A stretch of 60,915 bases of DNA, taken from NCBI GenBank assembly GCA_964400885.1, contig CAYNWH010000002.1, positions 24,668 through 85,582 on the forward strand, written 5' to 3'. How positions within the stretch are numbered: position 1 is the first letter of the stretch; every line of letters begins with the position of its first letter. Position numbers and translations under genes: made by a program. Shown here in pieces: positions 7,268 to 45,267 of the stretch. The notes under the pieces are model-generated. The model saw only the letters and a program-made list of their open reading frames with translations, had not been told where the DNA came from and searched no databases. This DNA comes from an uncultured Gammaproteobacteria bacterium. Lineage in GTDB: Bacteria; Patescibacteriota; Patescibacteriia; CAIXNZ01.

Positions 7268-8515
7268 ATGAAAAATTTACAAAAACAAGACAACGAAATT
7301 TATCAAAGCATAAAAAATGAATTAGACCGCCAACAATCCGGCTTGGTTATGATACCTTCAGAAAATTTCACTTCACCAGCTGTTTTAGAAACCATGGCCA
7401 GTGTTTTGAACAATAAATATGCTGAAGGTTATCCTGAAAAACGCTATTATACTGGCAATCAATTTATAGATGAGATTGAAAATTTGGCCATTAAACGGGC
7501 TAAAAAATTATTTGGCGCTGACTATGCTAATGTTCAGCCGCATGCTGGCACAACTGCAAATTTAGCCATTTATTTTGCTTTGCTCAAGCCAGGCGATAAA
7601 ATTTTATCCTTAAATTTATCTCATGGCGGTCATTTATCTCATGGCAGTAAAGTCAGCCTGGTCAGCCAATTTTATAAGATTGTCCATTATAATGTTGATC
7701 CTCTCACTTGCCTACTTGATTATGATGAGATCAGGCAAATTGCTCTCAATGAAAAGCCGCAGCTGATAATTTCAGGTTTTTCTTCTTACCCCAGAAAAAT
7801 CAACTTTAAATTTTTTAATGATATTGCTAAAGAAATAGGCGCTTATCATTTGGCAGATATTTCCCATATTGCCGGTTTAATTATTGCCAATGAACATCCA
7901 GACGCTATTCCTTATGCTGATGTGGTGATGACTACCACTCATAAAACTTTACGCGGACCCAGAGGCGCGATTATTTTAGGGAAAAAAGAATTAGCAGAAA
8001 AAATTAATAAAGCTGTTTTTCCTGGTACTCAAGGCGGACCATTTGAGCATATTATTGCGGCCAAAGCTGTTTGTTTTCAGCAGGCTATGACTAAGGAATT
8101 CATCAATGACCAAAAACAAACAGTGAAAAATGCTCAGGCCCTGGCCCAAACATTAATTAGCAATGACCTAACATTAATTACCGGAGGCACTGACACTCAT
8201 TTAATCCTGATTGATTGCCGGCCTTTAAATTTAACGGGCAAACAAGCAGCTGATTTATTAGCTGATTTAGGAATTTATACTAATGCTAATGTTATTCCTT
8301 ATGATGAAAAGCCAGCAGCCAATCCTTCTGGCTTGCGACTAGGTACGCCAGCCTTAACTACTCAAGGCATGAAAGAAAAGGAAATGCGAATGATCGGGCA
8401 AATAATTTCAGATGTGCTTAAAAATCCAAATGACTCGAATATAAAATTAAAAGCCAAAAAGTTGGTTGCAGAATTAACTGACAAGTTTTCTATTTATAAA
8501 GATTTAAAGTATTAA
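7268..8515 (+). CDS. glyA: Serine hydroxymethyltransferase
   Basis: 415 aa; LNNKYAEGYP, VQPHAGTTAN, TTTHKTLRGPRG (PLP-lysine motif). Confidence 0.95.
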   Translation: MKNLQKQDNEIYQSIKNELDRQQSGLVMIPSENFTSPAVLETMASVLNNKYAEGYPEKRYYTGNQFIDEIENLAIKRAKKLFGADYANVQPHAGTTANLAIYFALLKPGDKILSLNLSHGGHLSHGSKVSLVSQFYKIVHYNVDPLTCLLDYDEIRQIALNEKPQLIISGFSSYPRKINFKFFNDIAKEIGAYHLADISHIAGLIIANEHPDAIPYADVVMTTTHKTLRGPRGAIILGKKELAEKINKAVFPGTQGGPFEHIIAAKAVCFQQAMTKEFINDQKQTVKNAQALAQTLISNDLTLITGGTDTHLILIDCRPLNLTGKQAADLLADLGIYTNANVIPYDEKPAANPSGLRLGTPALTTQGMKEKEMRMIGQIISDVLKNPNDSNIKLKAKKLVAELTDKFSIYKDLKY

Positions 8516-8524
8516 ATATATAAA

Positions 8525-8629
8525 GGCGAAACTACCTTTTGTCCTTTCCCTGTCATCCTGAGCAAAGCGAAGGATCTGTGAATTTATAAATTCTTCGTTG
8601 CACTCAGAATAACAAAAGGCAGTTTCGCC
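8525..8629. repeat. Nested palindromic (REP/MITE-like) element between glyA and folD
   Basis: Outer arms ggcgaaactaccttttgt / acaaaaggcagtttcgcc; inner inverted modules tgtcatcctgagcaaagcgaaggatc / ttcttcgttgcactcagaat. Confidence 0.7.
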
Positions 8630-8641
8630 CTAAATTATAAT

Positions 8642-9439
8642 ATGTCTGCCCAACTCATTGATGGTAAAAAACTTGCCAATGAAATTTTAGCCAATTTGGC
8701 TAAAAAAATATCTAAACTTAAAAAACGTCCTGGTTTGGCTGCTGTTTCAATTGGTGATAATGAAGCCTCAAAACTTTATCTTAAGCTTAAAGAAAAAGCC
8801 TGCCACAATGTCGGTATTGATTTTCATTCATATTTTATAGAAAAAGATTGCTCTGAAAAAAAAGTTTTGGAAGTTATTGATTTTTTAAATCAAGATCCAC
8901 AAATTAACGGCATTTTAATCCAGCTGCCTTTGCCAAAAAGATTCAACACCAATAAAGTCATCAAAGCCATAAAGCCAGCCAAAGATATTGACGGCTTTCA
9001 CCCGCAAACAAAAATTATTTCACCCAACATTTTAGGTATTCTTGAACTGATTAAAGCAACCAGCGAAAATTTAAAAAATAAAAAAGTTACCATTTTAAGT
9101 AATTCAAAATTATTCGCAAAACCATTCAAAAAATTATTACCGCAATGTAAAATAAATTATTCCAATCCCCAATCTCCAATTTCTAGTCTCAAATCTCAAA
9201 CAAAAAATTCAGATATTCTCATCACTGCCCTTGGCAAACCTAAATTCATTAAACCAACCATGATTAAGAAAGACGCCATTTTAATTGATGTGGGCATAAA
9301 CAAAGTGCGAGGCAAAACAGTCGGTGATATTGACCCGGCTTGCGATAAAGTGGCAGCTTTCCGTTCACCTGTACCTGGCGGTGTAGGGCCAATGACAGTG
9401 GCTATGCTTTTGCAGAATTTAATAAAAATGGTAAAGTAA
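8642..9439 (+). CDS. folD: Methylenetetrahydrofolate dehydrogenase/cyclohydrolase (divergent)
   Basis: 265 aa; ASKLYLKLKEK, KDIDGFHP, PVPGGVGPMTVAML; dinucleotide loop is degenerate (ILSNSKLFAKP). Confidence 0.8.
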   Translation: MSAQLIDGKKLANEILANLAKKISKLKKRPGLAAVSIGDNEASKLYLKLKEKACHNVGIDFHSYFIEKDCSEKKVLEVIDFLNQDPQINGILIQLPLPKRFNTNKVIKAIKPAKDIDGFHPQTKIISPNILGILELIKATSENLKNKKVTILSNSKLFAKPFKKLLPQCKINYSNPQSPISSLKSQTKNSDILITALGKPKFIKPTMIKKDAILIDVGINKVRGKTVGDIDPACDKVAAFRSPVPGGVGPMTVAMLLQNLIKMVK

Positions 9440-11134: not shown

Positions 11135-13231
11135 TCAATCCTCTAAATCTTCATATGTCACTGAACTTAAAAATTCATGTTTTCTTAAATTCTTAGCTGG
11201 TTTGTCAAAATCAATTTCCTCATCATCTTCATCATAAATTTCTCCATCCTCATTAACCTGCCAAGGTTCAAACAAAGAATCATCAAGTTCAGAAATAAAA
11301 CTTGAGGGTTTATTAATATTCGTGCCTGTCAAATATGAAGTGGAAATGATCGGATAAGTTAAATAAAGTTCATCCTTGGCTCTGGTTACAGCCACATAAA
11401 ATAAACGGCGTTCTTCCTCTATTTCTTCAGGATGATCATAAATTTTATAATGCGGAAACTGGCCCTCAGCCAACCCTATCAAAAATACATATTTCCATTC
11501 CAAACCTTTGGCCTGATGAATTGTGCTTAAAACCAGCATTTCATCCGGCCCTTCCTGATAACCTTCAACACTTTCCCCTTTAAAGCCTTCTGACAATGTC
11601 ACGTCGGACAAAAAATCTTCCAACTTTTTATATTGTAAAGCGAAATTAGCCAGCTGGTTCAAATCCTCCAACCGATCTTTAGCGTTTTCAAAATTAGTTT
11701 TTAAATAAGCCTCGTAATCAGCCTTTAAAATCTGCCTAATTGCTGTGGCAATAAATTCATTTTTTTGTTCCAGCAAAAATTTAAACAAACTGTTTAATTT
11801 CTCTAAACTGCGGATTATTTTAGGCGAACCGGAAATTTGGTTTAATTTTTCAACTGCTGATTTAAAATTAGAAACAGCATTTAATTCCTGCCAGATTTTT
11901 TCCGCATTAGTCGCACCAATGCCTTCATACAAAAGCAAAACCCGTTTCCAGGCCATTTCATCCTGATAATTGGCAATAATTTTCAAATAAGCAACCACAT
12001 CTTTAATATGAGCTTGTTCAAAAAATTTAATGCCCCCGCGCATAGTATAAGGAATATTTCTTTTATTTAATTCTAATTCCATTTCCATGGCCTGAAAACT
12101 GGAGCGGAACAAAATCGCCATATCATTTAAAGATGAACCTTCTTCCTGCAATTCCAAAATCCTTTGGGCAATAAATTGGGCCTGTTGTTCCCCGTCGCGC
12201 AAAGCTACTAAAGCCGGGCGTTGCTTGTGTTCAATAATTGTGTTCAAGACTTTTTGGTACTGATTTAAATTATTGGCAATGCTGTCATTAGCCAGATTTA
12301 AAATTTCCGGTGAGGAACGATAATTGGTTTCAATCTTAAAAATTTTTGTGCCTTTAAATTTTTCCGGAAAACTTAAAATATTATTAATATCAGCGGCGCG
12401 AAAAGAATAAATTGATTGGCAATCATCGCCAACCACCAAAACATTTTTATGAACTGAAGCCAATTGGTTAATTATGGCGCCCTGGATGTAATTAGTATCC
12501 TGATATTCATCCACCAAAATATATTTAAACTGGCTAGCTAATTTATTTTTAATTATTTTATCTTGTTTTAAAAGTTTTAACCAATTAATCAATAAATCAT
12601 CAAAATCCATAACATTAGTTTTCTGCTTTTTCCTTTGATAGGCCTTATTAATTATTTCAATGACTGGGATTAGCTTAGGGCCTAAATAGCTGTATTTTAA
12701 TTCCACGACTTCGCTAATTGGTTTTTGGCTATTGGAAGCAAAGGAAATAATATTTAAAATAATATCAGCTTTGGGAAAATATTTATCTTTATAATTTAAA
12801 TTTAACTCACCCATTACAGCTTTGAGCAAAGTCTTGGCATCTTCCTGGTCTAAAATGGTGAATTTATTATCATAGCCTAAATTCTTGGCATAGCGCCGTA
12901 AAATAATATTGCCAATGTGGTGAAAGGTACCGCCCCATAAACCTTTAGGCTGGCATTTTAATAACACTTCTACTCTATTTAACATTTCCTTGGCGGCTTT
13001 ATTAGTAAAAGTGACTAAAAGAATATTTTTAGGATTAATGCCTTTTTCCACCAAATAAGCCACGCGATAAACCAAAGTCCGGGTTTTGCCTGATCCAGCG
13101 CCAGCCAAAACCAAACAAGGACCATCTCCATGCAAAACAACGTCCAGTTGTTCTTTATTCAATTCGTTTTGGTAATCTATTTTAAAATTACCAAGACAAA
13201 CATTCTCCTGATGTAATTTATATTGTTTCAT
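11135..13231 (-). CDS. uvrD: UvrD/PcrA/Rep-family ATP-dependent DNA helicase
   Basis: 698 aa; AGAGSGKTRTL Walker A, VDEYQDTN motif II, TIHQAKGLEW, YVAVTRAK. Confidence 0.9.
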   Translation of the reverse strand: MKQYKLHQENVCLGNFKIDYQNELNKEQLDVVLHGDGPCLVLAGAGSGKTRTLVYRVAYLVEKGINPKNILLVTFTNKAAKEMLNRVEVLLKCQPKGLWGGTFHHIGNIILRRYAKNLGYDNKFTILDQEDAKTLLKAVMGELNLNYKDKYFPKADIILNIISFASNSQKPISEVVELKYSYLGPKLIPVIEIINKAYQRKKQKTNVMDFDDLLINWLKLLKQDKIIKNKLASQFKYILVDEYQDTNYIQGAIINQLASVHKNVLVVGDDCQSIYSFRAADINNILSFPEKFKGTKIFKIETNYRSSPEILNLANDSIANNLNQYQKVLNTIIEHKQRPALVALRDGEQQAQFIAQRILELQEEGSSLNDMAILFRSSFQAMEMELELNKRNIPYTMRGGIKFFEQAHIKDVVAYLKIIANYQDEMAWKRVLLLYEGIGATNAEKIWQELNAVSNFKSAVEKLNQISGSPKIIRSLEKLNSLFKFLLEQKNEFIATAIRQILKADYEAYLKTNFENAKDRLEDLNQLANFALQYKKLEDFLSDVTLSEGFKGESVEGYQEGPDEMLVLSTIHQAKGLEWKYVFLIGLAEGQFPHYKIYDHPEEIEEERRLFYVAVTRAKDELYLTYPIISTSYLTGTNINKPSSFISELDDSLFEPWQVNEDGEIYDEDDEEIDFDKPAKNLRKHEFLSSVTYEDLED

Positions 13232-13260: not shown

Positions 13261-13378
13261 CTGTCATATCAGGGCAAAGCCTTGGTTTAGACAGGCGAAA
13301 ACGGTCCGTGTATTTGTAGAGACGTGACATGTCATGCCTCTACGTTAATACCATTCCCCCATTCAAGCCGTTTTCGCC
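13261..13378. repeat. Nested palindromic element at the left edge of the GC-rich island
   Basis: CTGTCATATCAGGGCAAAGC module; outer arms ggcgaaaacgg / ccgttttcgcc (13294-13304, 13368-13378); inner near-perfect palindrome gtagagacgtgacatgtcatgcctctac. Confidence 0.7.
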
Positions 13379-13380
13379 CA

Positions 13381-13410
13381 AAAGAAAAAGACCCGCGCAT
13401 TGCACGGGTC
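13381..13410 (-). terminator. Intrinsic terminator of the 352-aa gene
   Basis: minus strand: gacccg-tgcaatgcg-cgggtc followed by TTTTTCTTT. Confidence 0.65.
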
Positions 13411-13430
13411 AAGTAATCATGGTGAATGAA

Positions 13431-14489
13431 TTAATAATAACGCCATTCAATACGATGATCATCGCTGAGACGGTCAGGATTGCCTGATAACTCATCCTTC
13501 CAAGGGAATGAATTAACAGGAACGAATTGATAACTAAAACCGTCGGTAAACCGCCAATCATCGTCATGTCCAGTGGAATTATCCAGCATGTCAAGTATAC
13601 CGTATTGGGTGTAACAAGGACCATAAGCATAGCCACATTTGAAATCACCCTTAAATGAAAGCTGAAAATATTCCAAAGGAACTAATGGAGTAATAACAAG
13701 ACGAGGTAAATGGTCATAGCCTCGTCTGAATTTGAGCTGAACATAAGCACTCGGAGATTGCTCATAAATACTGCCTGACAAGGATTGCTGAATGCTCGGT
13801 TGATCCCAAGGGCTATCATGTTTCTGAAATCGAGATTTTATTCTCCATTTCAAGTAAAACATTTTATCAAGGCATTTTCTCCAGATACTACGATTAGCAA
13901 GTTCCTGGAGATATTCCTCATGTTCTGCATCAGCTTCCTCTTCCCATGAGGTCTTAAGACCAAGATGAGGAAGTAATCTGGTGTTGTAATCATCCCATGC
14001 ATCCCGCATGATCTGACCAACTAGCCAGCTATCCTGTTTACAGATTGGAAAAGTCATATGCCTGAATTCATACAAATATTCAGCCTGAAAAGGATTCCAG
14101 CGTTTTGACATTAATTCCCCAAGACGCTCGTAAATTTCTGAGTAAGGGCGTAACAAAAGCCGAAAGACTTCATCAAATTCATCATCGCTAAGGCAAGGAG
14201 TATCGCTATCACGATTAAATTGTTCGTTATAGCTTTTAATCCAAGCCTGGCGAGGTGTAAGTTGACGTTCAGCCTGATATTCGGCTTTTTCCATGACTGT
14301 GAATGGGTATGACAAACTATCCCACAGCCAAAAAATGTCACGAGCCTTCGGTTGTTCAGACTCATCCCAATCACGAGATTCATTCCACAATTGATGCAAG
14401 TATTTCCTGAGAGTATTAATTTCTGCATCATCAGCATCACGCAAATCAGCAGCATTGACATTGACCAAAGATTGTTTTAAGTAAATCAT
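13431..14489 (-). CDS. Hypothetical Trp/Asp/Glu-rich protein (352 aa)
   Basis: Long ORF with CGAGGAGG SD; no recognised domain; intermediate GC. Confidence 0.65.
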   Translation of the reverse strand: MIYLKQSLVNVNAADLRDADDAEINTLRKYLHQLWNESRDWDESEQPKARDIFWLWDSLSYPFTVMEKAEYQAERQLTPRQAWIKSYNEQFNRDSDTPCLSDDEFDEVFRLLLRPYSEIYERLGELMSKRWNPFQAEYLYEFRHMTFPICKQDSWLVGQIMRDAWDDYNTRLLPHLGLKTSWEEEADAEHEEYLQELANRSIWRKCLDKMFYLKWRIKSRFQKHDSPWDQPSIQQSLSGSIYEQSPSAYVQLKFRRGYDHLPRLVITPLVPLEYFQLSFKGDFKCGYAYGPCYTQYGILDMLDNSTGHDDDWRFTDGFSYQFVPVNSFPWKDELSGNPDRLSDDHRIEWRYY

Positions 14490-14662
14490 AATTTACCTCC
14501 TCGTTTTGGCCCGCCTTTTGCGAACCTTGGCTAGATTGGTTGCCGTTTGGGAAACATTCTTCTTTTTTGTTCCCTTTCTTTTTTCACGGCTTCCGAGGAG
14601 GTTTTAAAAAAATATAAAGGTACATGTTCAAACAGTTTAGCGTATTTTTAAGGATTTGTCAA
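14490..14662 (-). promoter_or_regulatory. Promoter plus ~137-nt leader with anti-SD/SD pairing
   Basis: TTGACA (14657-14662)-N17-TAAACT (14634-14639); leader CCUCCUCG (14593-14601 region) is perfectly complementary to the SD CGAGGAGG (14496-14503). Confidence 0.45.
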
Positions 14663-14690
14663 TGATAGGGCTCAATCTCTTTTCCAAATT

Positions 14691-14731
14691 AAAAAGCCCC
14701 GAACCTTCCGCATAGCGGAATAGTTCGGGGC
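14691..14731 (-). terminator. Intrinsic terminator after purC
   Basis: minus strand: gccccgaac...gttcggggc 9-bp stem followed by TTTTT. Confidence 0.75.
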
Positions 14732-14747
14732 ATGTGAGGCTTAGCCC

Positions 14748-15656
14748 TTAGGCAACGCCGAGCAGCGTTGCCAAAGAAACGTCCGGAGCCTCCGGCTTGA
14801 TGTCCAGGCTGGAAAAACCGGCGGTGATTGCGGCGATCTGCTCGAACTTCTGCTTGACCACATTGGTGTCTGCGCCATCACGGTAAAGCTGTTTGTCGAG
14901 CATGCCGCCCTTATTGAGCTGGGCCATGGCATTAGCTACGCTCAGGTCAATGGTGTTAACACCGTCGACATAGGGCCAGAGACGGAACGAGCCAGCCGTG
15001 ATTTCATCCACCAGCAGGATCTCGCCTCCGGGACCCCAGCACAGCTCGTCGCGGGCATCTCTGTCCGTCAGGATGACGCCGATTTCGATCTTGTCATCCA
15101 TGTACTGGGCCTGGGACTTGGCAAAAGCCGCTTCCAGGGCCAGGAATTGCCGCAGCTTGAGCTGGGCGATCTGGCTGAACAGGTCCATTTTTTTCTTGCG
15201 CTCGATGGTCAGCAGGAATTGCGGATCCAGAAGCGGGTCATGCAGAAAATCGTCCTTGTAGAAAAACTGCAGGAAAGGCGGGGTGAAAACCGCGCCTTCG
15301 GAGATCTTGCCGGCCCACAGTTCCAGGATAGAACCAGTGGCTACCCGGCGCATGACCACTTCTAGCTTAAGGATCTGGGTCAATTTGCGCACGATGACGA
15401 TCCGCTCTTCCGGGGAACCCAGGTAGGCCATGGGAATCCCCTGACGTTTCAGAAACTCTAGGAGATCCCGATTGGTGCGCCAGTCAACCACGGCCTTGCC
15501 CTGGATGATATCGTGTTTTTGGCCGTCGCCAGCAGTGATATCATCCTTGAACTCCAGAACTTCCGTATCCTGATTCGCCTTGTTGGCCCAGACAATCTTG
15601 GTCTTGCCCTCGGCCAGCTTTTCCCCGCGTTCCCAATCTAAGTTCAACTCCGTCAT
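14748..15656 (-). CDS. purC: Phosphoribosylaminoimidazole-succinocarboxamide (SAICAR) synthase, long form
   Basis: 302 aa; GKTKIVW, EFKDDITAGDGQKHD, EVVMRRVATGS; GC-rich; AAGGAGG SD. Confidence 0.85.
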   Translation of the reverse strand: MTELNLDWERGEKLAEGKTKIVWANKANQDTEVLEFKDDITAGDGQKHDIIQGKAVVDWRTNRDLLEFLKRQGIPMAYLGSPEERIVIVRKLTQILKLEVVMRRVATGSILELWAGKISEGAVFTPPFLQFFYKDDFLHDPLLDPQFLLTIERKKKMDLFSQIAQLKLRQFLALEAAFAKSQAQYMDDKIEIGVILTDRDARDELCWGPGGEILLVDEITAGSFRLWPYVDGVNTIDLSVANAMAQLNKGGMLDKQLYRDGADTNVVKQKFEQIAAITAGFSSLDIKPEAPDVSLATLLGVA

Positions 15657-15659
15657 TTT

Positions 15660-16184
15660 TCAGTCCTCCTTTTCAGGTGATTTTTTTTTGTCCACCTCGG
15701 GGGGCCGAGGCTTTTTCTTGGCCTTGCTCTCGAAATGTTTTTCGAAAGCCATCTGATTCACCAATAAACCGGGGTTAGTGGCCAAAATAGCCAAGGCTGC
15801 ATAGCCGGCATTGGTCACGCCCATTTTACCGCTACCAACTACCATGACTGGCAGTCCTGGCGGCATGTGGATCAGGCCGTCCACATCGCAAAAACCGTCC
15901 GCGGCGTCCACTAAAGGGACCCCAATGACTGCCACATGAGGCAACTTGGCTTTGACTGCCGAAGGCAGGTCAGCCTTGAGCCCAACCACACAGATGATGA
16001 CTTTAATGTTTCGCCGATTCAATTCATAGCAAAAATCCTGAAGTTCATCTGAGTGGCGATGAGCTGACAAGACTGACATGGTCCAAGTCACCCCAAACTC
16101 ATTGAGAAGATCGTAAAGACCGCTCTCCTCAACCACCTTTTCATCACTTTGACTGCCTAAAATCACTGCAATCTGTTGTTCCAT
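15660..16184 (-). CDS. purE: PurE (N5-CAIR mutase / AIR carboxylase family) with Lys-rich C-terminal tail
   Basis: 174 aa; IAVILGSQSD, VLSAHRHS (SAHR, class-I-like), VIGVP; C-terminal KAKKKPRPPEVDKKKSPEKED. Confidence 0.8.
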   Translation of the reverse strand: MEQQIAVILGSQSDEKVVEESGLYDLLNEFGVTWTMSVLSAHRHSDELQDFCYELNRRNIKVIICVVGLKADLPSAVKAKLPHVAVIGVPLVDAADGFCDVDGLIHMPPGLPVMVVGSGKMGVTNAGYAALAILATNPGLLVNQMAFEKHFESKAKKKPRPPEVDKKKSPEKED

Positions 16185-16283
16185 CCTTTCCTCCTCTTTA
16201 TTTTGTGGTTAATCCTCGTAACCTTCTTAACTTTATTATCAAACAGCCGCTAAAGCTGTTCATTTTTTTAAAAAACTATTACT

Positions 16284-16312
16284 AAATTAACTTAACTACG
16301 AATAAAAGTCAA
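16284..16312 (-). promoter_or_regulatory. purE-purC promoter
   Basis: TTGACT-N17-TAATTT on the minus strand; the same hexamers and spacing as the purA promoter. Confidence 0.5.
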
Positions 16313-16324
16313 GAAGAGCGCACT

Positions 16325-16404
16325 CTGTCATTCAGAGGCCATGGGCCGAAGAATCCCTAACTTAATTAAATTCAGAGACTCTTCGCTAACGCTTTGAGTG
16401 ACAG
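16325..16404. repeat. Palindromic element in the purE/purH divergent region
   Basis: ctgtcattcagaggccatgggccgaagaatcc ... agactcttcgctaacgctttgagtgacag; shares the CTGTCAT-C-GAG module with 8550 and 13261. Confidence 0.65.
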
Positions 16405-16566
16405 ATTAATTCTTTTTATTGACGGATTAATCAATTTCCGCTAAGTTATAATCATTACGTCCTTTACAATCCCTTTTAACTAAGGGTTTTAGACAAAAAA
16501 AAGTTGAAATAGATTAGGTAACAAACAAATTTCAAACCCGCCTTTGGCGGACAAGGAGGAGATCAA

Positions 16567-18324
16567 ATGACAAAACAAAAAGTAGCGGCTAAAGCAGGCG
16601 GTAAAAAGCCCCAGGGAAAAAAAACAAAAATGGCAGCAGCCAAAAAGGCCAAGAGAGAAAAACCGGCCTTGAAGGGCTTAAAAATCCCCAAAGGCAAAAA
16701 AGTCGCCTTGATCTCGGTTTTTAACAAAACCGGGATCGTGGAATTTGCCCAGGCCCTGATCAAAATGGGCTGGGTGATCCTGTCTTCAGGCGGCACAGCC
16801 AAGAAACTGAGCGAAGCCGGCCTCAAAGTCACTGACGTGGCAGAGCTAGTCGGCGGCGGCGCTATCCTGGGCCATCGCGTGGTCACCTTATCGCGTGAAG
16901 TCCATGCCGGGCTTTTGGCGCGAGAAATTCCTGAAGACATCGAGGAAATGGAAAAGCTGGGACTGCCCTACATCCACATGGTGGTCTGCGACTTTTACCC
17001 CATGAAAGACATTATTACCAAGGCTGGCGCGACCATTGAGTCAGTCGTGGAAATGACTGACATTGGCGGGCCCACCATGGTCAGAAGCGCTGCCAAAGGT
17101 GGCCGCATAGTCATCTGCGACGCGGCTGACCGCGACTGGGTCTTGGAAAGAATGAAATCCAGGAAAAAACATGATCTTTCGCCTTTTGACATCCAGCATC
17201 TGCGGGCCAAAACGGAAATCGTGGTCAGCCAGTATTGCCTGGACTCGGCCAAGTTCCATAGCCAAGGACGCTTCACCGGCTTAGCCGGCCAGTTCCTGAA
17301 AAAGTGCAAGTATGGCGAAAATCCGTACATGAACGACGAGGTTACTGGCCTTTTCACCACCGGCAGCAAAGATCGTCTGGCTTTGGAAAACTTCCAGCTG
17401 ATCGAGGGCACGGATCCGTCATTCATCAACTACACAGACATGGATCGGTTGATGCAGAGCATCACCCATATCGCGGCTGGCTTTGACCTCAATTTCAGCC
17501 GCGTGCCCCTGATCGCCTGCGCAGTCAAGCACGGCAACCCGTGCGGCGCAGCCGTTGGCTATGACCCCAAAAAAGTCATTGCCAACATGGCCATGGGTGA
17601 TAACCTGGCGCTTTTCGGCGGCCTGGTCATGACCAACTTCCCCTTGACCGAGGAGCTGGTGGAACTGCTGATGACCATTAACCAGCCCCAAGGAAAAAGG
17701 CTGCTGCTTGATGGAGTCATGGCTCCGCATGTCACAGACGAAGCCATTGCCCTGCTCAAGCGCAAAACTGACAAGTGCCGCATCCTGGTCAACAAGCATC
17801 TGATGAACATCAACAAATCCAGCCTGGACACCAATGAGCGTATCAGGCCAGTGCGCGGCGGTTTCCTGCGCCAGCCCAATTACACCTATGTTCTGGATCT
17901 GTCCGATCCGCGGTTGGTCATCACCATGCCCAAGAACCATGACGGCCTGACCGAGCTCGACTACGAGGACATTACCCTGGCCTGGGGAGTGGGAGCTACT
18001 TCCAACAGCAACACGACCTGCCTGACTCGGGAAGGCCAACTGCTCGGTGACGGTGTGGGCCAGCAAAGTCGGGTTGCCAGCTGCCAAGTGGCAGTTTTCC
18101 GCACCAAAGCAGCTGGCCATCAGACAGGAGCATCTGTGGCCTACACAGACTCGTTCTGTCCGCAGCCTGACGCACCAGAAGTCCTGGCCAACGCAGGAGT
18201 CAGCATCCTGTTCGCCAGCTCTGGCTCAGTCAACGACAAAATCGTCCAGAAGACCTGCCAAAAACGCGGGCTCATCCTGATCCAGTTGCCAGACAAAGTC
18301 TGCCGTGGCTTTTTCGGCCACTAA
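16567..18324 (+). CDS. purH: Bifunctional AICAR transformylase / IMP cyclohydrolase with Lys-rich N-terminal extension
   Basis: 585 aa; MGS-like domain (ALISVFNKTGIVEFA, SSGGTAKKL), AICARFT domain (KHGNPCGAA); ~45-aa K-rich leader sequence; strong AAGGAGG SD. Confidence 0.9.
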   Translation: MTKQKVAAKAGGKKPQGKKTKMAAAKKAKREKPALKGLKIPKGKKVALISVFNKTGIVEFAQALIKMGWVILSSGGTAKKLSEAGLKVTDVAELVGGGAILGHRVVTLSREVHAGLLAREIPEDIEEMEKLGLPYIHMVVCDFYPMKDIITKAGATIESVVEMTDIGGPTMVRSAAKGGRIVICDAADRDWVLERMKSRKKHDLSPFDIQHLRAKTEIVVSQYCLDSAKFHSQGRFTGLAGQFLKKCKYGENPYMNDEVTGLFTTGSKDRLALENFQLIEGTDPSFINYTDMDRLMQSITHIAAGFDLNFSRVPLIACAVKHGNPCGAAVGYDPKKVIANMAMGDNLALFGGLVMTNFPLTEELVELLMTINQPQGKRLLLDGVMAPHVTDEAIALLKRKTDKCRILVNKHLMNINKSSLDTNERIRPVRGGFLRQPNYTYVLDLSDPRLVITMPKNHDGLTELDYEDITLAWGVGATSNSNTTCLTREGQLLGDGVGQQSRVASCQVAVFRTKAAGHQTGASVAYTDSFCPQPDAPEVLANAGVSILFASSGSVNDKIVQKTCQKRGLILIQLPDKVCRGFFGH

Positions 18325-18340
18325 TTCCTTTCACCAACTA

Positions 18341-18371
18341 AAAAAGGGATGCGTTTTCACGCATCCCTTTT
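18341..18371. terminator. Bidirectional terminator between convergent purH and purB
   Basis: AAAAA-gggatgcg-ttttca-cgcatccc-TTTT. Confidence 0.8.
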
Positions 18372-18393
18372 ACTATTGTTATGTTTTTGACCG

Positions 18394-19755
18394 TTATTGG
18401 AAACGGGCAAAAATAGTATTAATGTGCTTCAGATCCTCTTGCGGATCAAAGCATGTTTCCAGTTCCCTTCTACTCAGAATCTTGACGATTTTCTGATTCT
18501 TAAAAACTCGCTCTTGGAAAGTCGGACCGTCCGGATTGTCAAAGACTTCCCAGCAGAGATTCTGAATAAAGGTGTGAGCCGCTTCCCTGCCCATGCCTTT
18601 GCGCGTCAGGGCCAGCATGACTTTCTGGGAGAAAATCAAACCGCCAGTCAATTCCAAGTTGCGCTTCATGTTGCGCGGATTGACCTGCAATTTTTTGATG
18701 ATGCCGGCCATCCTGGCCAAGCTATAGTCGACCAATGCTGAAGAGTCAGGCAAAATGACGCGCTCAGCCGCGGAATTGGCAATATCCCGCTCATGCCAGG
18801 TGACCATGTTTTCCAGTGCTGTGACCACATAGCCCCGTAAAGTCCGGGAATTACTGCAAACGTTTTCCGGTCCAATGGGGTTGCGTTTGTGTGGCATGGC
18901 TGAACTGCCTTTTTGGCCGCGTACGAATTCTTCCTGCACCTCGGCGATCTCAGTACGTTGAAGGTTGCGTAGCTCAGTCCCCAACCTGTCCAATGTACCG
19001 CCGATCATAGCCATGAGCGTGACATACTCGGCATGCAGATCCCGGGGCAGAATCTGAGTGGAAATACGCGCCGGTTTAATGCACAGCAAGTTGCAGACCC
19101 GCTCTTCAATCCGGGGATCAATATTGGCATAAGTGCCGACTGCCCCGGAAATCTTTCCCACGCAGATCCGCTCCAGCATCTGAAAAAGCCGCTCTTTATG
19201 GCGCTCGAATTCGTCGACATAGACCAGCAGCTTGAACCCGAAAGTAATGGGCTCGGCCTGAACCCCGTGAGTCCGGCCGATTTGAACTTGATCCTTGTAC
19301 AACTTGGCTTTAGTCCTGATCTCAGCGATCAAGCGTTCCAAGTCTGCCCTGATCAGTCCAGCTGACGCTGCCAGAATGACGGACAAAGCCGTATCCTGCA
19401 CGTCATAAGAAGTAACACCCTGGTGAAATAAAGGCAGCAGCGCAGTCAGTTCCAGCTTTTTCAGCTGAAGAGTTACATGCTTAACAAAGGCCATAACATC
19501 ATGACGATTGCCCTTTTCCTTGACTGTGCCGTCCTTGTTCTTGGCACCGTTTTCAATGCGGTTAATAATATGCGGCTTGATAACCACCTTTTCACGGGCG
19601 ATTTCAATTTCTCGCCGCACCTGCTTTGCATTATTGACCAAGCCTAAATTGCACTTGGCCAAAATTATAGCTAACTCGACTTCCAGCCAAGTTTTGAACT
19701 TGTGCTGGTCGCTCCAGCAACTACCCATTTTCTTAGGCGTATACCTGGGTATCAT
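18394..19755 (-). CDS. purB: Adenylosuccinate lyase
   Basis: 453 aa; MIPRYTPKKM start, GSSAMPHKRNP signature, fumarate-lyase fold length; GC-rich; AAGGAGG SD. Confidence 0.9.
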   Translation of the reverse strand: MIPRYTPKKMGSCWSDQHKFKTWLEVELAIILAKCNLGLVNNAKQVRREIEIAREKVVIKPHIINRIENGAKNKDGTVKEKGNRHDVMAFVKHVTLQLKKLELTALLPLFHQGVTSYDVQDTALSVILAASAGLIRADLERLIAEIRTKAKLYKDQVQIGRTHGVQAEPITFGFKLLVYVDEFERHKERLFQMLERICVGKISGAVGTYANIDPRIEERVCNLLCIKPARISTQILPRDLHAEYVTLMAMIGGTLDRLGTELRNLQRTEIAEVQEEFVRGQKGSSAMPHKRNPIGPENVCSNSRTLRGYVVTALENMVTWHERDIANSAAERVILPDSSALVDYSLARMAGIIKKLQVNPRNMKRNLELTGGLIFSQKVMLALTRKGMGREAAHTFIQNLCWEVFDNPDGPTFQERVFKNQKIVKILSRRELETCFDPQEDLKHINTIFARFQ

Positions 19756-19945
19756 TCGTAATCCTCCTTTTCAGTCTTTTTCTGCAACTATTGCAGCAGA
19801 ATTTTTGTTCTGCCGGACTTCTACCCTCAAATCTGGGATCAGGCACTAACTGATCAGTATTTCTACCGCAGCCCGGGATCGGGCATTTCAGCTTTTTTCT
19901 GGTCAGTGTTTTGTTATACCTGCCATTCTTTAATCTTCTTGCCAT
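19733..19945 (-). CDS. Small basic CxxC...CxxC protein (70 aa) overlapping the purB start
   Basis: GGAAGGAGG SD; CPIPGC and CCNSC pairs; ORF runs through the purB SD and overlaps purB by 23 nt. Confidence 0.5.
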   Translation of the reverse strand: MARRLKNGRYNKTLTRKKLKCPIPGCGRNTDQLVPDPRFEGRSPAEQKFCCNSCRKRLKRRITNDTQVYA

Positions 19946-20353: not shown

Positions 20354-21802
20354 ATGCCAACTAAAAAGGAAAAAAATCTTTTAGAAAAATTACCGCCGCA
20401 AAGCATTGAAGCTGAACAGTCTTTACTGGGTTCTCTTTTGATTGATAAAGACGCAATTATTAAAATTGCTGACATAGTCGGACCTGAAGATTTTTACGTT
20501 GAGAAACACAGGATAATTTTTGAATCAATTTTATATTTATTTAGCAAAAGAGAGCCAATAGATCTTTTAACATTGGCTAACCGCTTAATTGAAAAAGAAC
20601 AATTAGAAAATATCGGCGGCCGCAGTTATCTAGTTTCTTTAAGCAATCTTGTGCCTACTTCCAGCCATGTGGTCAATTATGCAGAAATTGTCCAAAAAAA
20701 AGCTACTTTGCGCAATTTGATAAAATCAGCTTCGGAAATAACTAAAATGGGCTATGATGAAGAAGAAGATGTCAGCAATATTTTGGACAAAGCTGAACAA
20801 AAATTATTTTCAGTTTCCCAGGGCCATCAAAAACAAATGTTTGTGCCTATTACCAGTATCTTGAATGAGACATTTGAAAGAATTGATGCTATTCATAAAG
20901 AAAAAGGCAAATTAAGAGGCGTGCCTACTGGTTTTACTGATCTGGATAATTTATTAGCCGGTTTGCAAAAATCAGACTTGACTATTCTAGCTGCCAGACC
21001 TTCTGTTGGTAAGACTACTTTGGCTTTAGATATTGCCCGCACCGTAGCCACTAAACATAAAGTACCTGTTGGCATTTTCAGTTTAGAAATGTCTAAAGAA
21101 CAGCTAGTTGACCGCTTGCTTTGCGCTGAAGCTAATGTTGATTTATGGAAAATGAGAACCGGCAGATTATCTGACCGGGAAGAAGATGATGATTTTCCTC
21201 GAATCGGCCATGCTTTAGGCGTTTTAGCTGAATCACCGATTTTTATTGATGATTATGCTTCAGCAAATATTATGGAAATCAGAACCAAAGCCAGAAGACT
21301 GCAAATGGAACATGATCTAGGTTTAATTGTGGTTGATTACCTGCAATTAATGGAAGGCAGGACCAGAACAGATAATCGCGTTCAGGAAATTTCAGAAATT
21401 TCCCGCGGTTTAAAACAAATTGCTAAAGAATTAAATGTGCCAGTTCTGGCGCTCTCTCAGCTAAACAGAAGTGTAGAATCACGCACGCCGCCTATACCTA
21501 AATTATCTGACTTACGCGAATCAGGTTCTATTGAACAAGATGCTGATATTGTTATGTTTATTTACCGTGAAGCAGTATATAAAAGAGACTTAGAATTTGA
21601 CCGCCGCCATTTAGCGGAGATTCATATTGCCAAACACAGAAACGGCCCGACTGGCATGGTAAAATTATTTTTTGACGAACAAAAAGTAACTTTTAGAAAT
21701 TTGGATAAAGAATTCAAATCTTCAGCGCCCAGTGAACTGCCTGAAGTTTCTGATGATGAAGGCTTGCAAAGTTCTGAGATGCAATTGCCAAAATTTGGCT
21801 AA
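20354..21802 (+). CDS. dnaB: Replicative DNA helicase
   Basis: 482 aa; PPQSIEAEQSLLGSLL N-terminus, ARPSVGKTTLAL Walker A, VVDYLQLM, RESGSIEQDAD. Confidence 0.95.
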   Translation: MPTKKEKNLLEKLPPQSIEAEQSLLGSLLIDKDAIIKIADIVGPEDFYVEKHRIIFESILYLFSKREPIDLLTLANRLIEKEQLENIGGRSYLVSLSNLVPTSSHVVNYAEIVQKKATLRNLIKSASEITKMGYDEEEDVSNILDKAEQKLFSVSQGHQKQMFVPITSILNETFERIDAIHKEKGKLRGVPTGFTDLDNLLAGLQKSDLTILAARPSVGKTTLALDIARTVATKHKVPVGIFSLEMSKEQLVDRLLCAEANVDLWKMRTGRLSDREEDDDFPRIGHALGVLAESPIFIDDYASANIMEIRTKARRLQMEHDLGLIVVDYLQLMEGRTRTDNRVQEISEISRGLKQIAKELNVPVLALSQLNRSVESRTPPIPKLSDLRESGSIEQDADIVMFIYREAVYKRDLEFDRRHLAEIHIAKHRNGPTGMVKLFFDEQKVTFRNLDKEFKSSAPSELPEVSDDEGLQSSEMQLPKFG

Positions 21803-22185: not shown

Positions 22186-22334
22186 GTTTCGCCTCCTTAT
22201 TAAATTTAATTATAGCTTATTTAAAATCCTATCTGCTGTCAAATGCTAAATTCTTGTGTTTATCATAAATTTCCGTTAAAATAATCAATATCCTATCACT
22301 AATCACCAATCACCAATTACTAATTACTAAAACT

Positions 22335-24245: not shown

Positions 24246-24680
24246 TTAGCCAGTGGGCTGGTTAAAATATTTTTTTCCTTTGGGCGGAGAAAAGATAGAG
24301 ATGAAACTGCTTTTAAGCGACCTTTCCCCGGGATGAACATGTCTAACAAAAATAATTTTCTCTACAGCCTCAAAATGTTCATTGATCTGAGCCATAATAA
24401 TCTGCTCAAGCGTTAATTCACTTAAAAAAGTGCGGAAGCTATAAGCTGGCAGATCAATCAATCTGATTTCATGAATGGATACATCACTTCCATAAATATG
24501 AACGACTTTTAAGTAAATCCCATCCACTTTTTTATAATCTATTTTGGTTTGCAGGAAATCTTCTTCAGCTTGAAAGAACCTTATGGCTGTAGAGTCTTTA
24601 TCCCAATGAGCATTGATTGCCCAAAGCCAGGGACACTTTCGCCAGAGATTTTTTAACTCTACAAACTTGTTTTTGACCAT
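24246..24680 (-). CDS. Hypothetical protein (144 aa)
   Basis: GGGAGGG SD; own TTGACA-N17-TAAGAT promoter at ~24760-24788; no recognised domain. Confidence 0.6.
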   Translation of the reverse strand: MVKNKFVELKNLWRKCPWLWAINAHWDKDSTAIRFFQAEEDFLQTKIDYKKVDGIYLKVVHIYGSDVSIHEIRLIDLPAYSFRTFLSELTLEQIIMAQINEHFEAVEKIIFVRHVHPGERSLKSSFISIFSPPKGKKYFNQPTG

Positions 24681-24790
24681 CTTTAATCCCTCCCATTTAA
24701 CACTTATAAAAAAGAACCTATTTCTCTGCCCGAGCAGGAAATCCTATGTATTGTTTAAAATCTTAAGTTAACAGCTATTTTTTGTCAAAT

Positions 24791-24817
24791 AAAAAGCCCC
24801 GAACATGATACCGGGGC
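24791..24817 (-). terminator. Intrinsic terminator after the 200-aa membrane gene
   Basis: minus strand gccccg-gtatcatgtt-cggggc + TTTTT. Confidence 0.7.
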
Positions 24818-24838
24818 AACTTTAAGATTGTTTTATTG

Positions 24839-25441
24839 TTAAATTAACTGGACCAGCCAGTGCCAGATATCCAGCAGGAAAAAGGATAAGACAATAATGG
24901 CAGTTCCGCCGGCTAGGTTGGCGAACATGCCTTTGTCCATGATGCGGATTCCAGCTATGGTCAGCCAATTTTTATGCCATTCAATGTGTTCCGGAGCATA
25001 CTTTTCCGCGCCGAACGCTGGATTAACAAAAAAGTAAAAGGTATCTTCCAACGACCAGATGAGCATCAGGGTGGCAAAGGCTCTGATTTCCAGCAGCCAA
25101 ATCGGGGCTGTCTGATAAAAACAGAGATAGATCATGAGATGAGCGACAAAAAGCTGCAGCACATCGACATTCCGATGATAATAAGTAAAATCCTTACCGC
25201 CCAGCAACGTGTTGATATAAAAGTAGTAAAAACTGCCCGGCCATTTCGTGTGATCCACCTGCTCGTAAGAATTGGAGCCAAAGGGCTTAAAAAACATCTT
25301 GCCCTCTTTAGGGTCCCAGATATACTTGCTAGTCGGCAATTCTTTGGCCCAACCGTTTTCGCCTTCGATTTCCGCCTCAAGCCTGGCGAAAATCAGACAC
25401 CAAGTGACCAAAAGCACAAGAAACCAAATTACGTTGATCAT
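24839..25441 (-). CDS. Hypothetical polytopic membrane protein (200 aa)
   Basis: AGGAGGGG SD; several hydrophobic segments, aromatic-rich; no recognised family. Confidence 0.6.
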   Translation of the reverse strand: MINVIWFLVLLVTWCLIFARLEAEIEGENGWAKELPTSKYIWDPKEGKMFFKPFGSNSYEQVDHTKWPGSFYYFYINTLLGGKDFTYYHRNVDVLQLFVAHLMIYLCFYQTAPIWLLEIRAFATLMLIWSLEDTFYFFVNPAFGAEKYAPEHIEWHKNWLTIAGIRIMDKGMFANLAGGTAIIVLSFFLLDIWHWLVQLI

Positions 25442-43371: not shown

Positions 43372-43586
43372 ATCTTTTAGTAATTAGTAATTAGTAATTA
43401 GTTATTGGTTATTAGTGATATGAATAAAAAAATCTACGGGACACCGTAGATACAACTATAAGCTATTAGCCATAGGCCATTTGCTAAAAGTCAATTCCCT
43501 CGATAGGTTTTACGCTTTAAAAGCCACCTATTGTCTACGGTTATATTAAGTTATAAACAGTATAACATAACCAAAAATATTGTCAA
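43372..43586 (-). promoter_or_regulatory. rplJ promoter and ~185-nt leader with internal terminator (candidate L10-leader-type attenuator)
   Basis: TTGACA-N16-TGtTATACT; atctacgg-tgtc-ccgtagat + TTTTTTT (43425-43451) lies inside the leader; then a 53-nt G-free tract up to the ATG. Confidence 0.45.
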
Positions 43587-44231: not shown

Positions 44232-44816
44232 TTAAGAGAAATGACTTTTCTCCTTATTAATAAAGCTTAAAGCCTGAGTAACAATTTCCGGTTTATAAAA
44301 CAAGCTCAAACTTTCAAGGTATTTGTTGCCTTCAATCAACTTAACCTGAAAATTCTTTGCTAAACTATCATCGGCTTGACGCACAAAAAGCGCTTTAATC
44401 TTGTGCAGACTGCAAACTGCATCTATGGCCTCAATATTACGTTTAATTTGAGTGCCAACTGATAAATGTTCTTTAAATCCTCCCTTAAGACCGCAACACA
44501 GACAAACTAAGGCATAAGGAGGTAATGGCCTGTTTAATTCTGAGCCATATTTAAGATTTAGGCTAATTTGCCAACGGGTGGCAATCTCTGAGTCGTTCCA
44601 AATCAGCCAAGCAAATTCGGGCACTAACTCTGAATGTAGCAATACGATTTCACCGCGTTCAACTTCCTTTACTCTGATCACTTCAAGTTTACTAGCTTTT
44701 GAGGTAAAGTAAACTGCTTCGCTCAAAGGGGTTAATTTAATCAGTTCTTCTTTAAATTCAGCCGCAGATTGAGAATCAGGCTTAAACTCAAAAATCCTAT
44801 ACAATCTTAAACTCAT
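44232..44816 (-). CDS. Uncharacterised 194-aa protein under tandem SAM-riboswitch control
   Basis: AAGGAGG SD 7 nt upstream of the internal ATG (MSLRLYRIFEF...); not hydrophobic; no recognised domain; own terminator agcccttgtgg-atta-ccacaagggct. Confidence 0.7.
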   Translation of the reverse strand: MSLRLYRIFEFKPDSQSAAEFKEELIKLTPLSEAVYFTSKASKLEVIRVKEVERGEIVLLHSELVPEFAWLIWNDSEIATRWQISLNLKYGSELNRPLPPYALVCLCCGLKGGFKEHLSVGTQIKRNIEAIDAVCSLHKIKALFVRQADDSLAKNFQVKLIEGNKYLESLSLFYKPEIVTQALSFINKEKSHFS

Positions 44817-44871
44817 TTCCCTACCTCCTTGTCTTTTGTTGTTTAAAGAACACTTTGGGACGATAAGCAAA

Positions 44872-44902: not shown

Positions 44903-44926
44903 GAACTCAAAAAATTGAACTACCAG

Positions 44927-45031
44927 TTATCTTTCCCTTTTACAAGGGCGGAAATTAGCACCTACTGGCTGGTTTTTGCCAGGGTTGCCGCACAGGTCAC
45001 GGAGTCCGAACTCTCACTGTGCTCTTGATAA
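44927..45031 (-). promoter_or_regulatory. SAM-I (S-box) riboswitch aptamer, copy B (variant P2)
   Basis: minus strand TTATCAAGAGCACAG...CTGTGCGGCAACCCTGG...CCAG..GGTGCTAATTTCCGCCCTTGTAAAAGGGAAAGATAA; P1-P4 pairings are readable. Confidence 0.75.
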
Positions 45032-45062
45032 TTTTTTATTCAATTGTTAATGTACTCTAGTT

Positions 45063-45101: not shown

Positions 45102-45117
45102 TAAAATATATAACTTA

Positions 45118-45241: not shown

Positions 45242-45267
45242 CTACTTATTCAGTTTTAACTATAAGC

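Follow-up and report, generated by a model that had tools for sequence, protein, structure and literature searches.

How does an AT-rich, tiny-genome bacterium of the Candidate Phyla Radiation (CPR) come to carry purine genes whose base composition and codon usage differ sharply from those of their neighbours? The question is raised by a 60,915-nucleotide stretch of contig CAYNWH010000002.1 (assembly GCA_964400885.1; the whole stretch is called the window below), in which purE, purC, purH and purB, encoding late steps of purine synthesis, lie between uvrD and dnaB, and purA occupies a second position. CPR bacteria are taken to rely on hosts for their nucleotides, and genes of outlying composition are usually read as recent transfers. 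A first-pass annotation of the window had taken positions 13381-19945 for a GC-rich island, horizontally acquired by a lineage that normally lacks purine synthesis. Our analysis inclines us, with some reserve, to a different answer, namely that a late purine module has been held in two conserved slots, that its genes have been displaced over time while the high GC content at their third codon positions (GC3) was maintained, and that it is not a fresh island.

The contrast in composition itself is real. Most of the window has a GC content of 0.30-0.38 in 1-kb steps (about 34% for the background overall). The values climb to 0.53-0.55 between 14.5 and 16 kb, to 0.52-0.55 between 16.5 and 19.5 kb and, once more, to 0.55 at 46-47 kb. 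The abrupt change from AT-rich to GC-rich sequence between uvrD and dnaB that had been described by eye is borne out by these profiles, by the GC and GC3 of individual genes and by codon usage. Core genes of the window have a GC3 of 0.20-0.37; the five pur genes reach 0.72 in purC, the highest of them (GC 0.561), 0.68 in purH (GC 0.548), 0.59 in purB (GC 0.499), 0.57 in purA (GC 0.537) and 0.54 in purE (GC 0.497). The description of purC, purH and purB as well above 50% GC therefore holds for purC and purH, and purB, like purE, stands at about 50%. Codon choice follows the same division, with CTG making up 47% of leucine codons in the pur genes against 9% in the rest, ATC 59% against 10% of isoleucine codons and TTC 57% against 10% of phenylalanine codons. 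In composition and codon usage the pur genes are thus as atypical as a genomic island is expected to be. Within 13381-19945, it is the pur genes that deserve the name GC-rich, and 13381-14747, an open reading frame (ORF) with its spacers, has a GC content of only about 0.40. Since the spacers within the island have a GC content of 0.35-0.42, the GC-richness is limited to the coding sequences (CDS) and stops at their ends. Sparing of purines or adenine in the pur mRNAs was considered as a cause and rejected, given that the purine fraction is unchanged (0.52-0.54) and A and T fall equally. The genes and sites concerned are listed here, with SD denoting a Shine-Dalgarno sequence.

7268-9439, plus strand: glyA and folD, in the AT-rich, SD-less native style
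11135-13231, minus strand: uvrD/pcrA-type helicase gene, left border of the conserved slot
13431-14489, minus strand: hyp352, a lineage-specific hypothetical ORF of 352 aa, SD-led, GC 0.40, inside the island as first described
14696-14731, minus strand: GC-stem hairpin with T-run 3' of purC, read from the sequence, likely terminator of the purE-purC unit
14748-15656, minus strand: purC, SAICAR synthetase, 302 aa, with an AAGGAGG SD within the 3' end of purE
15660-16184, minus strand: purE-like AIR carboxylase/mutase gene, 174 aa, 3 nt upstream of purC
16185-16566, no strand: divergent purE/purH intergenic region, AT-rich, GC 0.35
16567-18324, plus strand: purH, AICAR transformylase/IMP cyclohydrolase, 585 aa, with a Lys/Ala-rich N-terminal extension of about 44 aa
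18342-18371, no strand: bidirectional hairpin between the convergent purH and purB
18394-19755, minus strand: purB, B. subtilis-type "short" adenylosuccinate lyase, 453 aa
19733-19945, minus strand: small, basic four-Cys zinc-ribbon ORF, 70 aa, SD-led, overlapping the purB start by 23 nt
20354-21802, plus strand: dnaB, right border of the conserved slot
45837-47135, minus strand: purA, adenylosuccinate synthase, 432 aa from the ATG, in its own slot between rlmH and a methyltransferase gene

The age of the arrangement is indicated by the position of these genes in related genomes. Judged by its proteins, the host is a Buchananbacteria-like member of the Patescibacteria (CPR): UvrD, DnaB and RecR are 78-90% identical to and collinear with those of Candidatus Buchananbacteria RBG_13_36_9 (L004) and Bin_492 (L007), and the nearest homologues of PurH are likewise from Candidatus Buchananbacteria (75-77% identity), followed by hundreds of Patescibacteria at 46-55%. 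We compared the gene contexts of the relatives labelled L003, L004, L005, L006, L007, L008, L086, L088, L091/92 and L093. Their common neighbourhood reads glyA-folD-macro-uvrD-[pur genes]-dnaB-ybaB-recR-L21-argG, and pur genes fill the uvrD-dnaB slot in at least 10 relatives, that is, in every relative examined; in each they are GC-richer than their flanks (pur GC3 0.33-0.70, flank GC3 0.18-0.35). The purA slot, between the methyltransferase gene and rlmH, is shared with L090 (86% PurA identity) and shows the same step, from 0.33 in the flanks to 0.54. Between the window and its nearest relative, L003, the synonymous divergence (dS) of the flanks is 1.1-1.4, and purH and purB are orthologous to the L003 genes with a dS of about 1-1.6. 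Because flank dS is about 1 or more in relatives that share the slot, the pur arrangement is old and therefore no recent island. Synonymous divergence falls below that of the flanks for purA (0.62 against 1.2-1.35) and for some purH pairs (0.53 against 0.92-0.98), as would be expected from constraint on synonymous sites or from exchange at a later time. In a neighbour-joining tree the PurH of this clade forms a monophyletic group nested among Patescibacteria, broadly consistent with the groupings of the flanks. The window has no tRNA gene, and no integrase, transposase or other mobility domain was found in it with Pfam, NCBIfam and PHROGs; att-type flanking repeats are also missing, the island borders holding only low-complexity A/T repeats. 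The locus thus resembles classical genomic islands in its atypical GC content and codon usage, its sharp boundaries and a gene content that varies between relatives, and departs from them in lacking mobility genes, a tRNA target and att repeats; nor is it present in some close relatives and absent from others, since the slot is filled in all that were examined, with differing versions.

What changes from relative to relative is the content of the slot. Separate purE and purC genes are found in the window, in L086 (76-80% identical to the window genes, dS 0.9-1.9) and in L088 (58-60%), and a fused purC-purE of 454-466 aa takes their place in five relatives (L003:978-2342; L004:8324-9718; L005:6724-8124; L006:7851-9230; L007:6086-7468). 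The PurC part of the fusion is only about 30% identical to that of the window, and its PurE part is without detectable similarity. A fusion of SAICAR synthetase with class-II AIR carboxylase, known as PAICS, is usually associated with animals. The fused protein of L003-L007 is PAICS-like, its best PDB matches being insect and human PAICS, and it shares with the eukaryotic enzymes (PDB 2h31, 4ja0) the order of domains and the class-II-like motifs, here SGHK and GMSNGLAP; the window itself differs from them in carrying purE and purC as two genes, of other origin, in place of the fusion. For purB, the short B. subtilis type occurs in the window, L003 and L088 and the long E. coli type in L004-L008 and L086, the two types being about 30% identical and occupying the same slot. 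The window PurB is 79-82% identical to that of L003 and 62-64% to that of L088. All four combinations of purC/purE type with purB type occur, and the slot of L086 has no purH. The mosaic is most evident in group A (L004, L005, L086 and L088), where DnaB and UvrD are 91-96% identical and the cassettes differ in purC/purE, purB and purH; the long PurB proteins of this group are 53-66% identical, and the dS of their genes is 2.5, where the flanks have 0.8-1.6. These differences are more than vertical descent can account for and represent repeated displacement in situ by functional equivalents. As far as gene comparison goes, the content of the slot is thereby shown to have been displaced by functionally equivalent, non-orthologous genes of other lineages, presumably by recombination through the conserved flanks. 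Because purC and purE have repeatedly been displaced in situ by equivalents, the step from aminoimidazole ribonucleotide (AIR) to succinylaminoimidazole carboxamide ribonucleotide (SAICAR) appears to be under selection, and its retention through displacement argues that AIR, from whatever source, is available to the cell.

A second variable slot is seen at 24246-25441 (minus strand), where the window carries the SD-led ORFs hyp144 and hyp200 at the place at which relatives carry argG. The argG of the relatives, lying between L21 and an AcrVA2-like gene, is SD-led with a GC3 of 0.42-0.49; hyp200 has a GC3 of 0.58 and is 58% identical to an ORF of L006. The PurH proteins of Nitrospirota (L010, L011, L012, L015 and L017) are 53-55% identical to that of the window and form a single clade nested among Patescibacteria, which suggests that this type of PurH may have been transferred between phyla; the GC content of the Nitrospirota genes matches that of their own flanks.

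The five enzymes were identified by NCBIfam profile and PDB searches, with the curated cut-offs as the threshold. PurB reaches 452.5 bits against TIGR00928 (cut-off 326.2) and PurA 423.4 bits against NF002223 (cut-off 402); PurB has Lyase_1 and ADSL_C domains, with the signature SSxMPxKxN in the form GSSAMPHKRNP, and PurA carries the P-loop GDEGKG within QWGDEGKG. PurC (95 bits against TIGR00081, cut-off 189.9), PurE (99.9 bits against TIGR01162, cut-off 149.6) and PurH (307.7 bits against NF002049, cut-off 402, and 279 against TIGR00355, cut-off 528) are divergent members, since their scores lie below the curated values. PurC has the SAICAR_synt domain (PF01259) on record, matches PurC and PAICS structures of the PDB down to E 5e-23 and contains the motifs GKTK and DDITAGDG. 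PurH consists of MGS (PF02142) and AICARFT_IMPCHas (PF01808) domains, has a KHGNPCG motif and keeps the family-invariant residues across 17 sequences; its start at 16567 is supported by the AAGGAGG SD at 16553-16559. The relatives of PurC are a few Patescibacteria at 76-85% identity and then KSB1 and Bathyarchaeia, the nearest outside the CPR, at 44-50%; those of PurA are a small CPR clade at 55-86% and then ordinary bacteria at 41-46%. Ratios of non-synonymous to synonymous divergence (dN/dS) are 0.08-0.17 for the pur genes, with about 0.09 for purC against L086, and at this level of codon comparison the genes are shown to be intact and under purifying selection; with the diagnostic motifs of their proteins present, they look functional. 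The N-terminal extension of PurH (16567-16698, residues 1-44), a feature of groups B and C, is histone-H1-like in its Lys/Ala-rich composition, and extensions of similar character and other sequence occur in L003, L006 and L007, with none in group A. PurE ends in a Lys-rich C-terminal tail (15660-15725) common to the window, L086 and L088.

The class of PurE is less simple than its motifs first indicated. The SAHR motif reported for it is present (SAHRHS), as is a GSxSD motif (ILGSQSDEK), and its PDB matches are to class-I structures, to E 1e-18, with no class II structure among them; the class II motifs (SAHK and the GRSNGLGP type) are missing. The call of a class-I-like enzyme agrees with these features and not with the 70s loop, which reads VGLKADLPS where class I has AGGAAHLPG. 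In this segment, VVGLKADLPS, the conserved His is replaced by Asp, as it is in L086 and L088. A search against 1.84 billion cluster representatives returned only the protein's own cluster at E<1e-30, and neighbouring clusters mostly retain SAHR and have lost the loop His. PurE proteins that function without PurK offer the nearest comparison: high-CO2 anaerobes commonly possess a PurE of class-I-like type and lack PurK, and an unclassifiable haloarchaeal PurE has Lys at position 73 (PMC3261824). The absence of purK is not diagnostic for the same reason. The window protein shares with the PurK-less PurE of methanogens and haloarchaea (PMC3261824) the SAHR motif, the lack of a purK in the window, a Lys at the place of E. 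coli residue 73 and an insertion that follows helix 1; it differs from them in having Asp for His75, and its family is a single 50% cluster known from sequence.

The composition of the pur genes is matched by a difference in how their translation is likely to start. Perfect AGGAGG-type SDs precede 13 of the 55 genes of the window, namely the five pur genes, the zinc-ribbon ORF, hyp352, hyp144, hyp200, the AcrVA2-like gene, a CDP-alcohol phosphatidyltransferase gene, hyp182 and h107. All core genes, among them dnaB, uvrD, recR, ybaB, L21, L10, L7/L12, glyA, folD, eno, pgk, tgt and murB, have only A/T-rich leaders without an SD. Median GC3 is 0.51 for the SD-led genes and 0.28 for the others (p=1e-7), and the same split recurs in seven relatives (L003-L006, L086, L088 and L090), where SDs precede pur, argG and numerous small hypothetical ORFs. 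The pur genes are thus a distinct class, with strong SDs and GC-ending codons, set against an SD-less, AT-rich core. We found no description of such a split in SD and GC3 for Patescibacteria in the literature searched. Initiation that is poor in SDs, with a minority of SD-led genes, is known from Bacteroidetes. The window is similar in having mostly A/T-rich, SD-less leaders and a subset with perfect AGGAGG, and dissimilar in that its SD-led subset is metabolic or accessory (pur, argG, hypotheticals) and rich in GC3. In many leaders, such as those of pgk and uvrD, a TATAAT-like box stands 6-7 nt ahead of the ATG, a hint of leaderless or very short-leader mRNAs. In several genomes a conserved repeat, taattactaattac, is found directly 5' of the ybaB, L10 and L12 start codons (22310-22334 for ybaB and 43372-43396 for L10 in the window; also in L003, L004, L086 and L090); it may act as a promoter or leader motif common to these genes.

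The layout of the pur genes agrees with the first-pass annotation in its details, including the 3-nt gap between purE and purC, the divergent purH and convergent purB, the strong SDs (AAGGAGG sites) and the terminator hairpins. Promoter-like and terminator-like sites show no excess over the expectation from shuffled sequence. No purine, ZTP or other riboswitch or leader was detected at E<=1 in the purE/purH intergenic region or the island, and control of the island by such an element was rejected, its sole match at that level being a chance Leu-leader. Of the two other ORFs in the slot, hyp352 has no NCBIfam, Pfam or PHROG match and a homologue only in L001, a contig of the same strain; a phage origin of the SD-led hypothetical ORFs was rejected on zero PHROG matches. 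The zinc-ribbon ORF, also without a match in Pfam or PHROG, has homologues in L004, L005, L008 and L088 with C21, C26, C51 and C54 invariant, and is kept between purB and dnaB whichever type of PurB is present; its 23-nt overlap with purB suggests that the two may be translationally coupled in the window. Between uvrD and hyp352 lies a nested hairpin (13294-13378) with a stem GGCGAAAACGG...CCGTTTTCGCC around an inner palindrome at 13316-13343; it has a fold z-score of -4.6 when folded with the adjacent terminator, and an 11-mer from it occurs in 5 copies in the window against 0.8 expected.

If the arrangement is old, the high GC3 calls for an explanation, and here the wider phylum is informative. 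At about 60 loci of Patescibacteria, pur ORFs lie more than 0.10 above the local median GC3 in 25% of cases and never below -0.10, against 7.1% above +0.10 and 6.8% below -0.10 for other ORFs (p=4e-14 against pur). At the patescibacterial loci the median excess of purH is 0.11 when it is SD-led and 0.02 otherwise (p=1e-4); SD-poorness of the flanks was tried as a predictor of the excess and rejected (Spearman rho 0.006). In the unrelated L032 (10001-14817), an SD-led purH reaches a GC3 of 0.72 where the local median is 0.39, and the same phenomenon is seen in L053, L043, L069, L028 and L084; appearing as it does in unrelated lineages, the GC-rich pur cassette is recurrent across the phylum. 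The enzyme does not need GC-rich coding, since some AT-rich CPR genomes have a native-style purH with a GC3 of 0.15-0.30. Regression to the GC content of a shared gene pool was likewise rejected, as purH exceeds its flanks in GC content even where the CPR host is itself GC-rich, and in no case falls below them.

Within the clade, substitution patterns were polarised at sites where at least 6 of 7 other taxa agree, an approach that replaced single-outgroup parsimony, which we judged to be biased. Changes from G or C to A or T (S>W) affect 1/38 purH sites in the window and 5/38 in L003, as compared with 13/50 and 19/50 in dnaB and recR together, while the reverse changes (W>S) affect 7/21 and 10/21 purH sites as compared with 32/236 and 45/236 (Fisher p 0.003-0.025 for the contrasts). 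PurH also has an AT-type amino-acid composition, so that its GC3 of 0.70 falls off the trend of 73 other PurH proteins (z=-2.7), which speaks against a relic, because in a relic the GC-type amino acids should outlast the high GC3. Maximum likelihood (ML) estimates came from a two-state non-stationary model on 157 synonymous sites of nine taxa. With three classes, this approach gives the lineage of the window and L003 an equilibrium GC (GC*) of 0.70, against 0.21-0.29 elsewhere, for a modest gain in fit (p=0.04). Compared with the flanks, purH of the window lineage thus has a higher share of W>S and a lower share of S>W changes, and its amino acids show no GC shift; its GC3 is probably being maintained or increased in this lineage and not simply decaying from a foreign state, a view inferred from modest counts.

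Several observations weigh against this interpretation. A model with one equilibrium, in which a root GC3 of 0.96 declines to a GC* of 0.24-0.30, describes purH almost equally well, and a GC* of 0.30 is not rejected (p=0.42); the value of 0.24 resembles those of dnaB (0.18) and uvrD (0.25). The counts of polarised changes are low, and the outgroups on which they depend are saturated. A net S>W decay is seen in groups C and A, and purH of L006 and L007 decays as expected, with an implied GC* of 0.23-0.30. Some AT-rich hypothetical ORFs are also SD-led, which means that the coupling of SD and GC3 is not strict. In favour of the interpretation, no GC-rich donor was found, all accessible PurH relatives of at least 60% identity residing in AT-rich genomes and in the same slot; taxon names nevertheless indicate Buchananbacteria with 45-56% GC, and an unsampled GC-rich reservoir is possible, as is an old acquisition from a very GC-rich donor followed by slow and uneven amelioration.

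How, then, do the competing accounts of the locus fare? That foreign GC-rich pur genes were joined to an AT-rich CPR contig by misassembly or contamination, a doubt raised for both junctions, draws its sole support from the abrupt change in composition and is scarcely credible: purC-purE-purH-purB-dnaB recurs at 100% identity in two independent assemblies, JGI 3300031552 and Logan SRR9700623, the latter with the purB-dnaB junction, and the same architecture and GC contrast are found in at least 10 independent relatives from different studies. A recent, un-ameliorated block from a GC-rich foreign donor, the island of the first-pass annotation, would explain the sharp contrast in composition and codon usage, the separate purE and purC of the window as compared with the fusion in its nearest relative, and the occurrence, outside the CPR, of PurC relatives in KSB1 and Bathyarchaeia (44-50%). 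We nevertheless hold it to be very improbable. The slot is filled in every relative examined, flank dS is about 1 or more, PurH is monophyletic, and neither purH and purB, set against their L003 orthologues, nor purC and purE, set against those of L086, are recent by their dS; there is no tRNA, integrase or flanking repeat, the internal spacers are AT-rich, and purA has the same properties in a separate slot. What survives of the proposed horizontal acquisition is lateral exchange, in that purC/purE and purB have been displaced among relatives, and what falls is the recently acquired, discrete island. An older event deserves closer attention, in which the ancestor of the clade acquired purH, perhaps with the whole module, once from a very GC-rich donor, and passive, uneven amelioration has left the window lineage the least changed. 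The ML root of 0.96, the GC* near those of dnaB and uvrD, the strong S>W excess in L006/L007 (44:4) with a moderate one in L005/L088, and a monophyletic PurH broadly congruent with the flanks all favour it. Calibrated on the flanks, however, about half of the deviation would have been lost since the window and L003 split, which would put the GC content at fourfold-degenerate sites (GC4) of their ancestor above 1; the window lineage gains W>S changes and is deficient in S>W, the amino acids of PurH show no GC shift, and no close PurH is found in a GC-rich genome. The amelioration model of Lawrence and Ochman for horizontally acquired genes also sits uneasily with a slot and a purH conserved over a clade with saturated flank dS and a GC3 that has not decayed in the window lineage. 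On this evidence we regard the old acquisition as rather unlikely.

A separate question is what the module does for the cell. The genes of the window cover the conversion of AIR through carboxyaminoimidazole ribonucleotide (CAIR), SAICAR, aminoimidazole carboxamide ribonucleotide (AICAR) and its formyl derivative (FAICAR) to inosine monophosphate (IMP), and purA and purB lead on to adenosine monophosphate (AMP). ORF annotation confirms that only these late steps, AIR to IMP plus purA, are present in the window, with neither early pur genes nor purK among the approximately 55 annotated ORFs. glyA and folD, syntenic with the cassette in L004, L005, L007 and L086, are predicted to supply 10-formyl-tetrahydrofolate for PurH. 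Enzyme families and reaction order are those of the canonical de novo pathway; unlike canonical pur operons, the locus has no early genes or purK nearby, no known leader, two scattered slots and a codon and SD style of its own. It could be, as the first-pass annotation had proposed, that purF, purD, purN or purT, purL and purM are lacking genome-wide, and that AIR, AICAR or ribosides imported from a host or the community are converted to IMP and AMP. The 60.9 kb without early genes would agree with such a half pathway, as would the neighbours of purH at about 72 patescibacterial loci, where purB, purC, purE, glyA and folD recur and purD appears in only 3. The view of the host lineage as sparse in purine synthesis has support, the host being a CPR bacterium and purine genes having been called uncommon and patchy in the CPR (PMC6851277, PMC5220378), a point on which the literature is divided. 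Against this, the window is only 60.9 kb, 32% of groundwater CPR metagenome-assembled genomes are reported to be complete as far as IMP (PMC11608272), purD does stand beside purH in some CPR loci, and no transporter or kinase for AIR or AICAR was identified. To keep and replace purE and purC would make sense only with AIR at hand, and AIR would most simply come from the early pathway. We therefore consider a genome-wide half pathway conceivable and somewhat doubtful.

Elsewhere in the window, a tandem pair of SAM riboswitches (Rfam RF00162; 59 and 49 bits) occupies 44924-45034 and 45115-45244 (minus strand), followed by a downstream ORF of 212 aa (44232-44870) with no Pfam or PHROG match. A ribosomal protein L10 leader (RF00557, 66.6 bits; 43416-43558, minus strand) stands 5' of L10 and L7/L12. 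Two tandem paralogues of cofactor-independent phosphoglycerate mutase (51819-53411 and 53415-54998, minus strand) adjoin enolase and pgk, and the right edge of the window holds an ORF (59731-60897, minus strand) with a partial match to the large subunit of NiFe-hydrogenases (PF00374).

For the old, displaced and maintained module that we favour, the following mechanism is tentatively proposed. The late pur genes, with glyA and folD as the predicted source of formyl groups, form a module held in two clade-conserved slots, and their exchange for non-orthologous equivalents presumably took place by recombination through the conserved flanks. The GC3 of purH could then be upheld by selection on codons or mRNA, or by GC-biased gene conversion tied to frequent recombination. 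GC-biased gene conversion raises the GC content of recombining bacterial genes, and the locus resembles its effects in that GC3 is raised specifically in genes with recombination or displacement; the magnitude here (GC3 0.7 against 0.28) is far above the effects usually reported. Selection at the codon level fits better than biased conversion because the excess stops at the ends of the CDS. A broader idea, which we offer as speculative and think improbable at present, is that two gene styles coexist in the CPR, an SD-less, AT-rich core and an SD-led, GC3-rich set of conditional metabolic and accessory genes such as pur and argG. The GC3 of the SD-led set would be held by selection or biased conversion, the division would be a built-in partition serving separate translational control or easy exchange between lineages, not a scar of transfer, and the one-sided, phylum-wide excess of pur GC3 would be its footprint.

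The outlier state of these pur genes is old, conserved in its slots and probably maintained, which bears on the habit of reading such outliers in CPR genomes as recent transfers. Genomes of near-identical background use interchangeable genes that are not orthologous for one and the same metabolic step, and the presence of an SD divides the genome into two classes of genes. If confirmed, these findings would affect the calling of horizontal gene transfer in CPR genomes, the prediction of gene starts and expression in these bacteria, and the decision as to which CPR lineages count as autonomous for purines.

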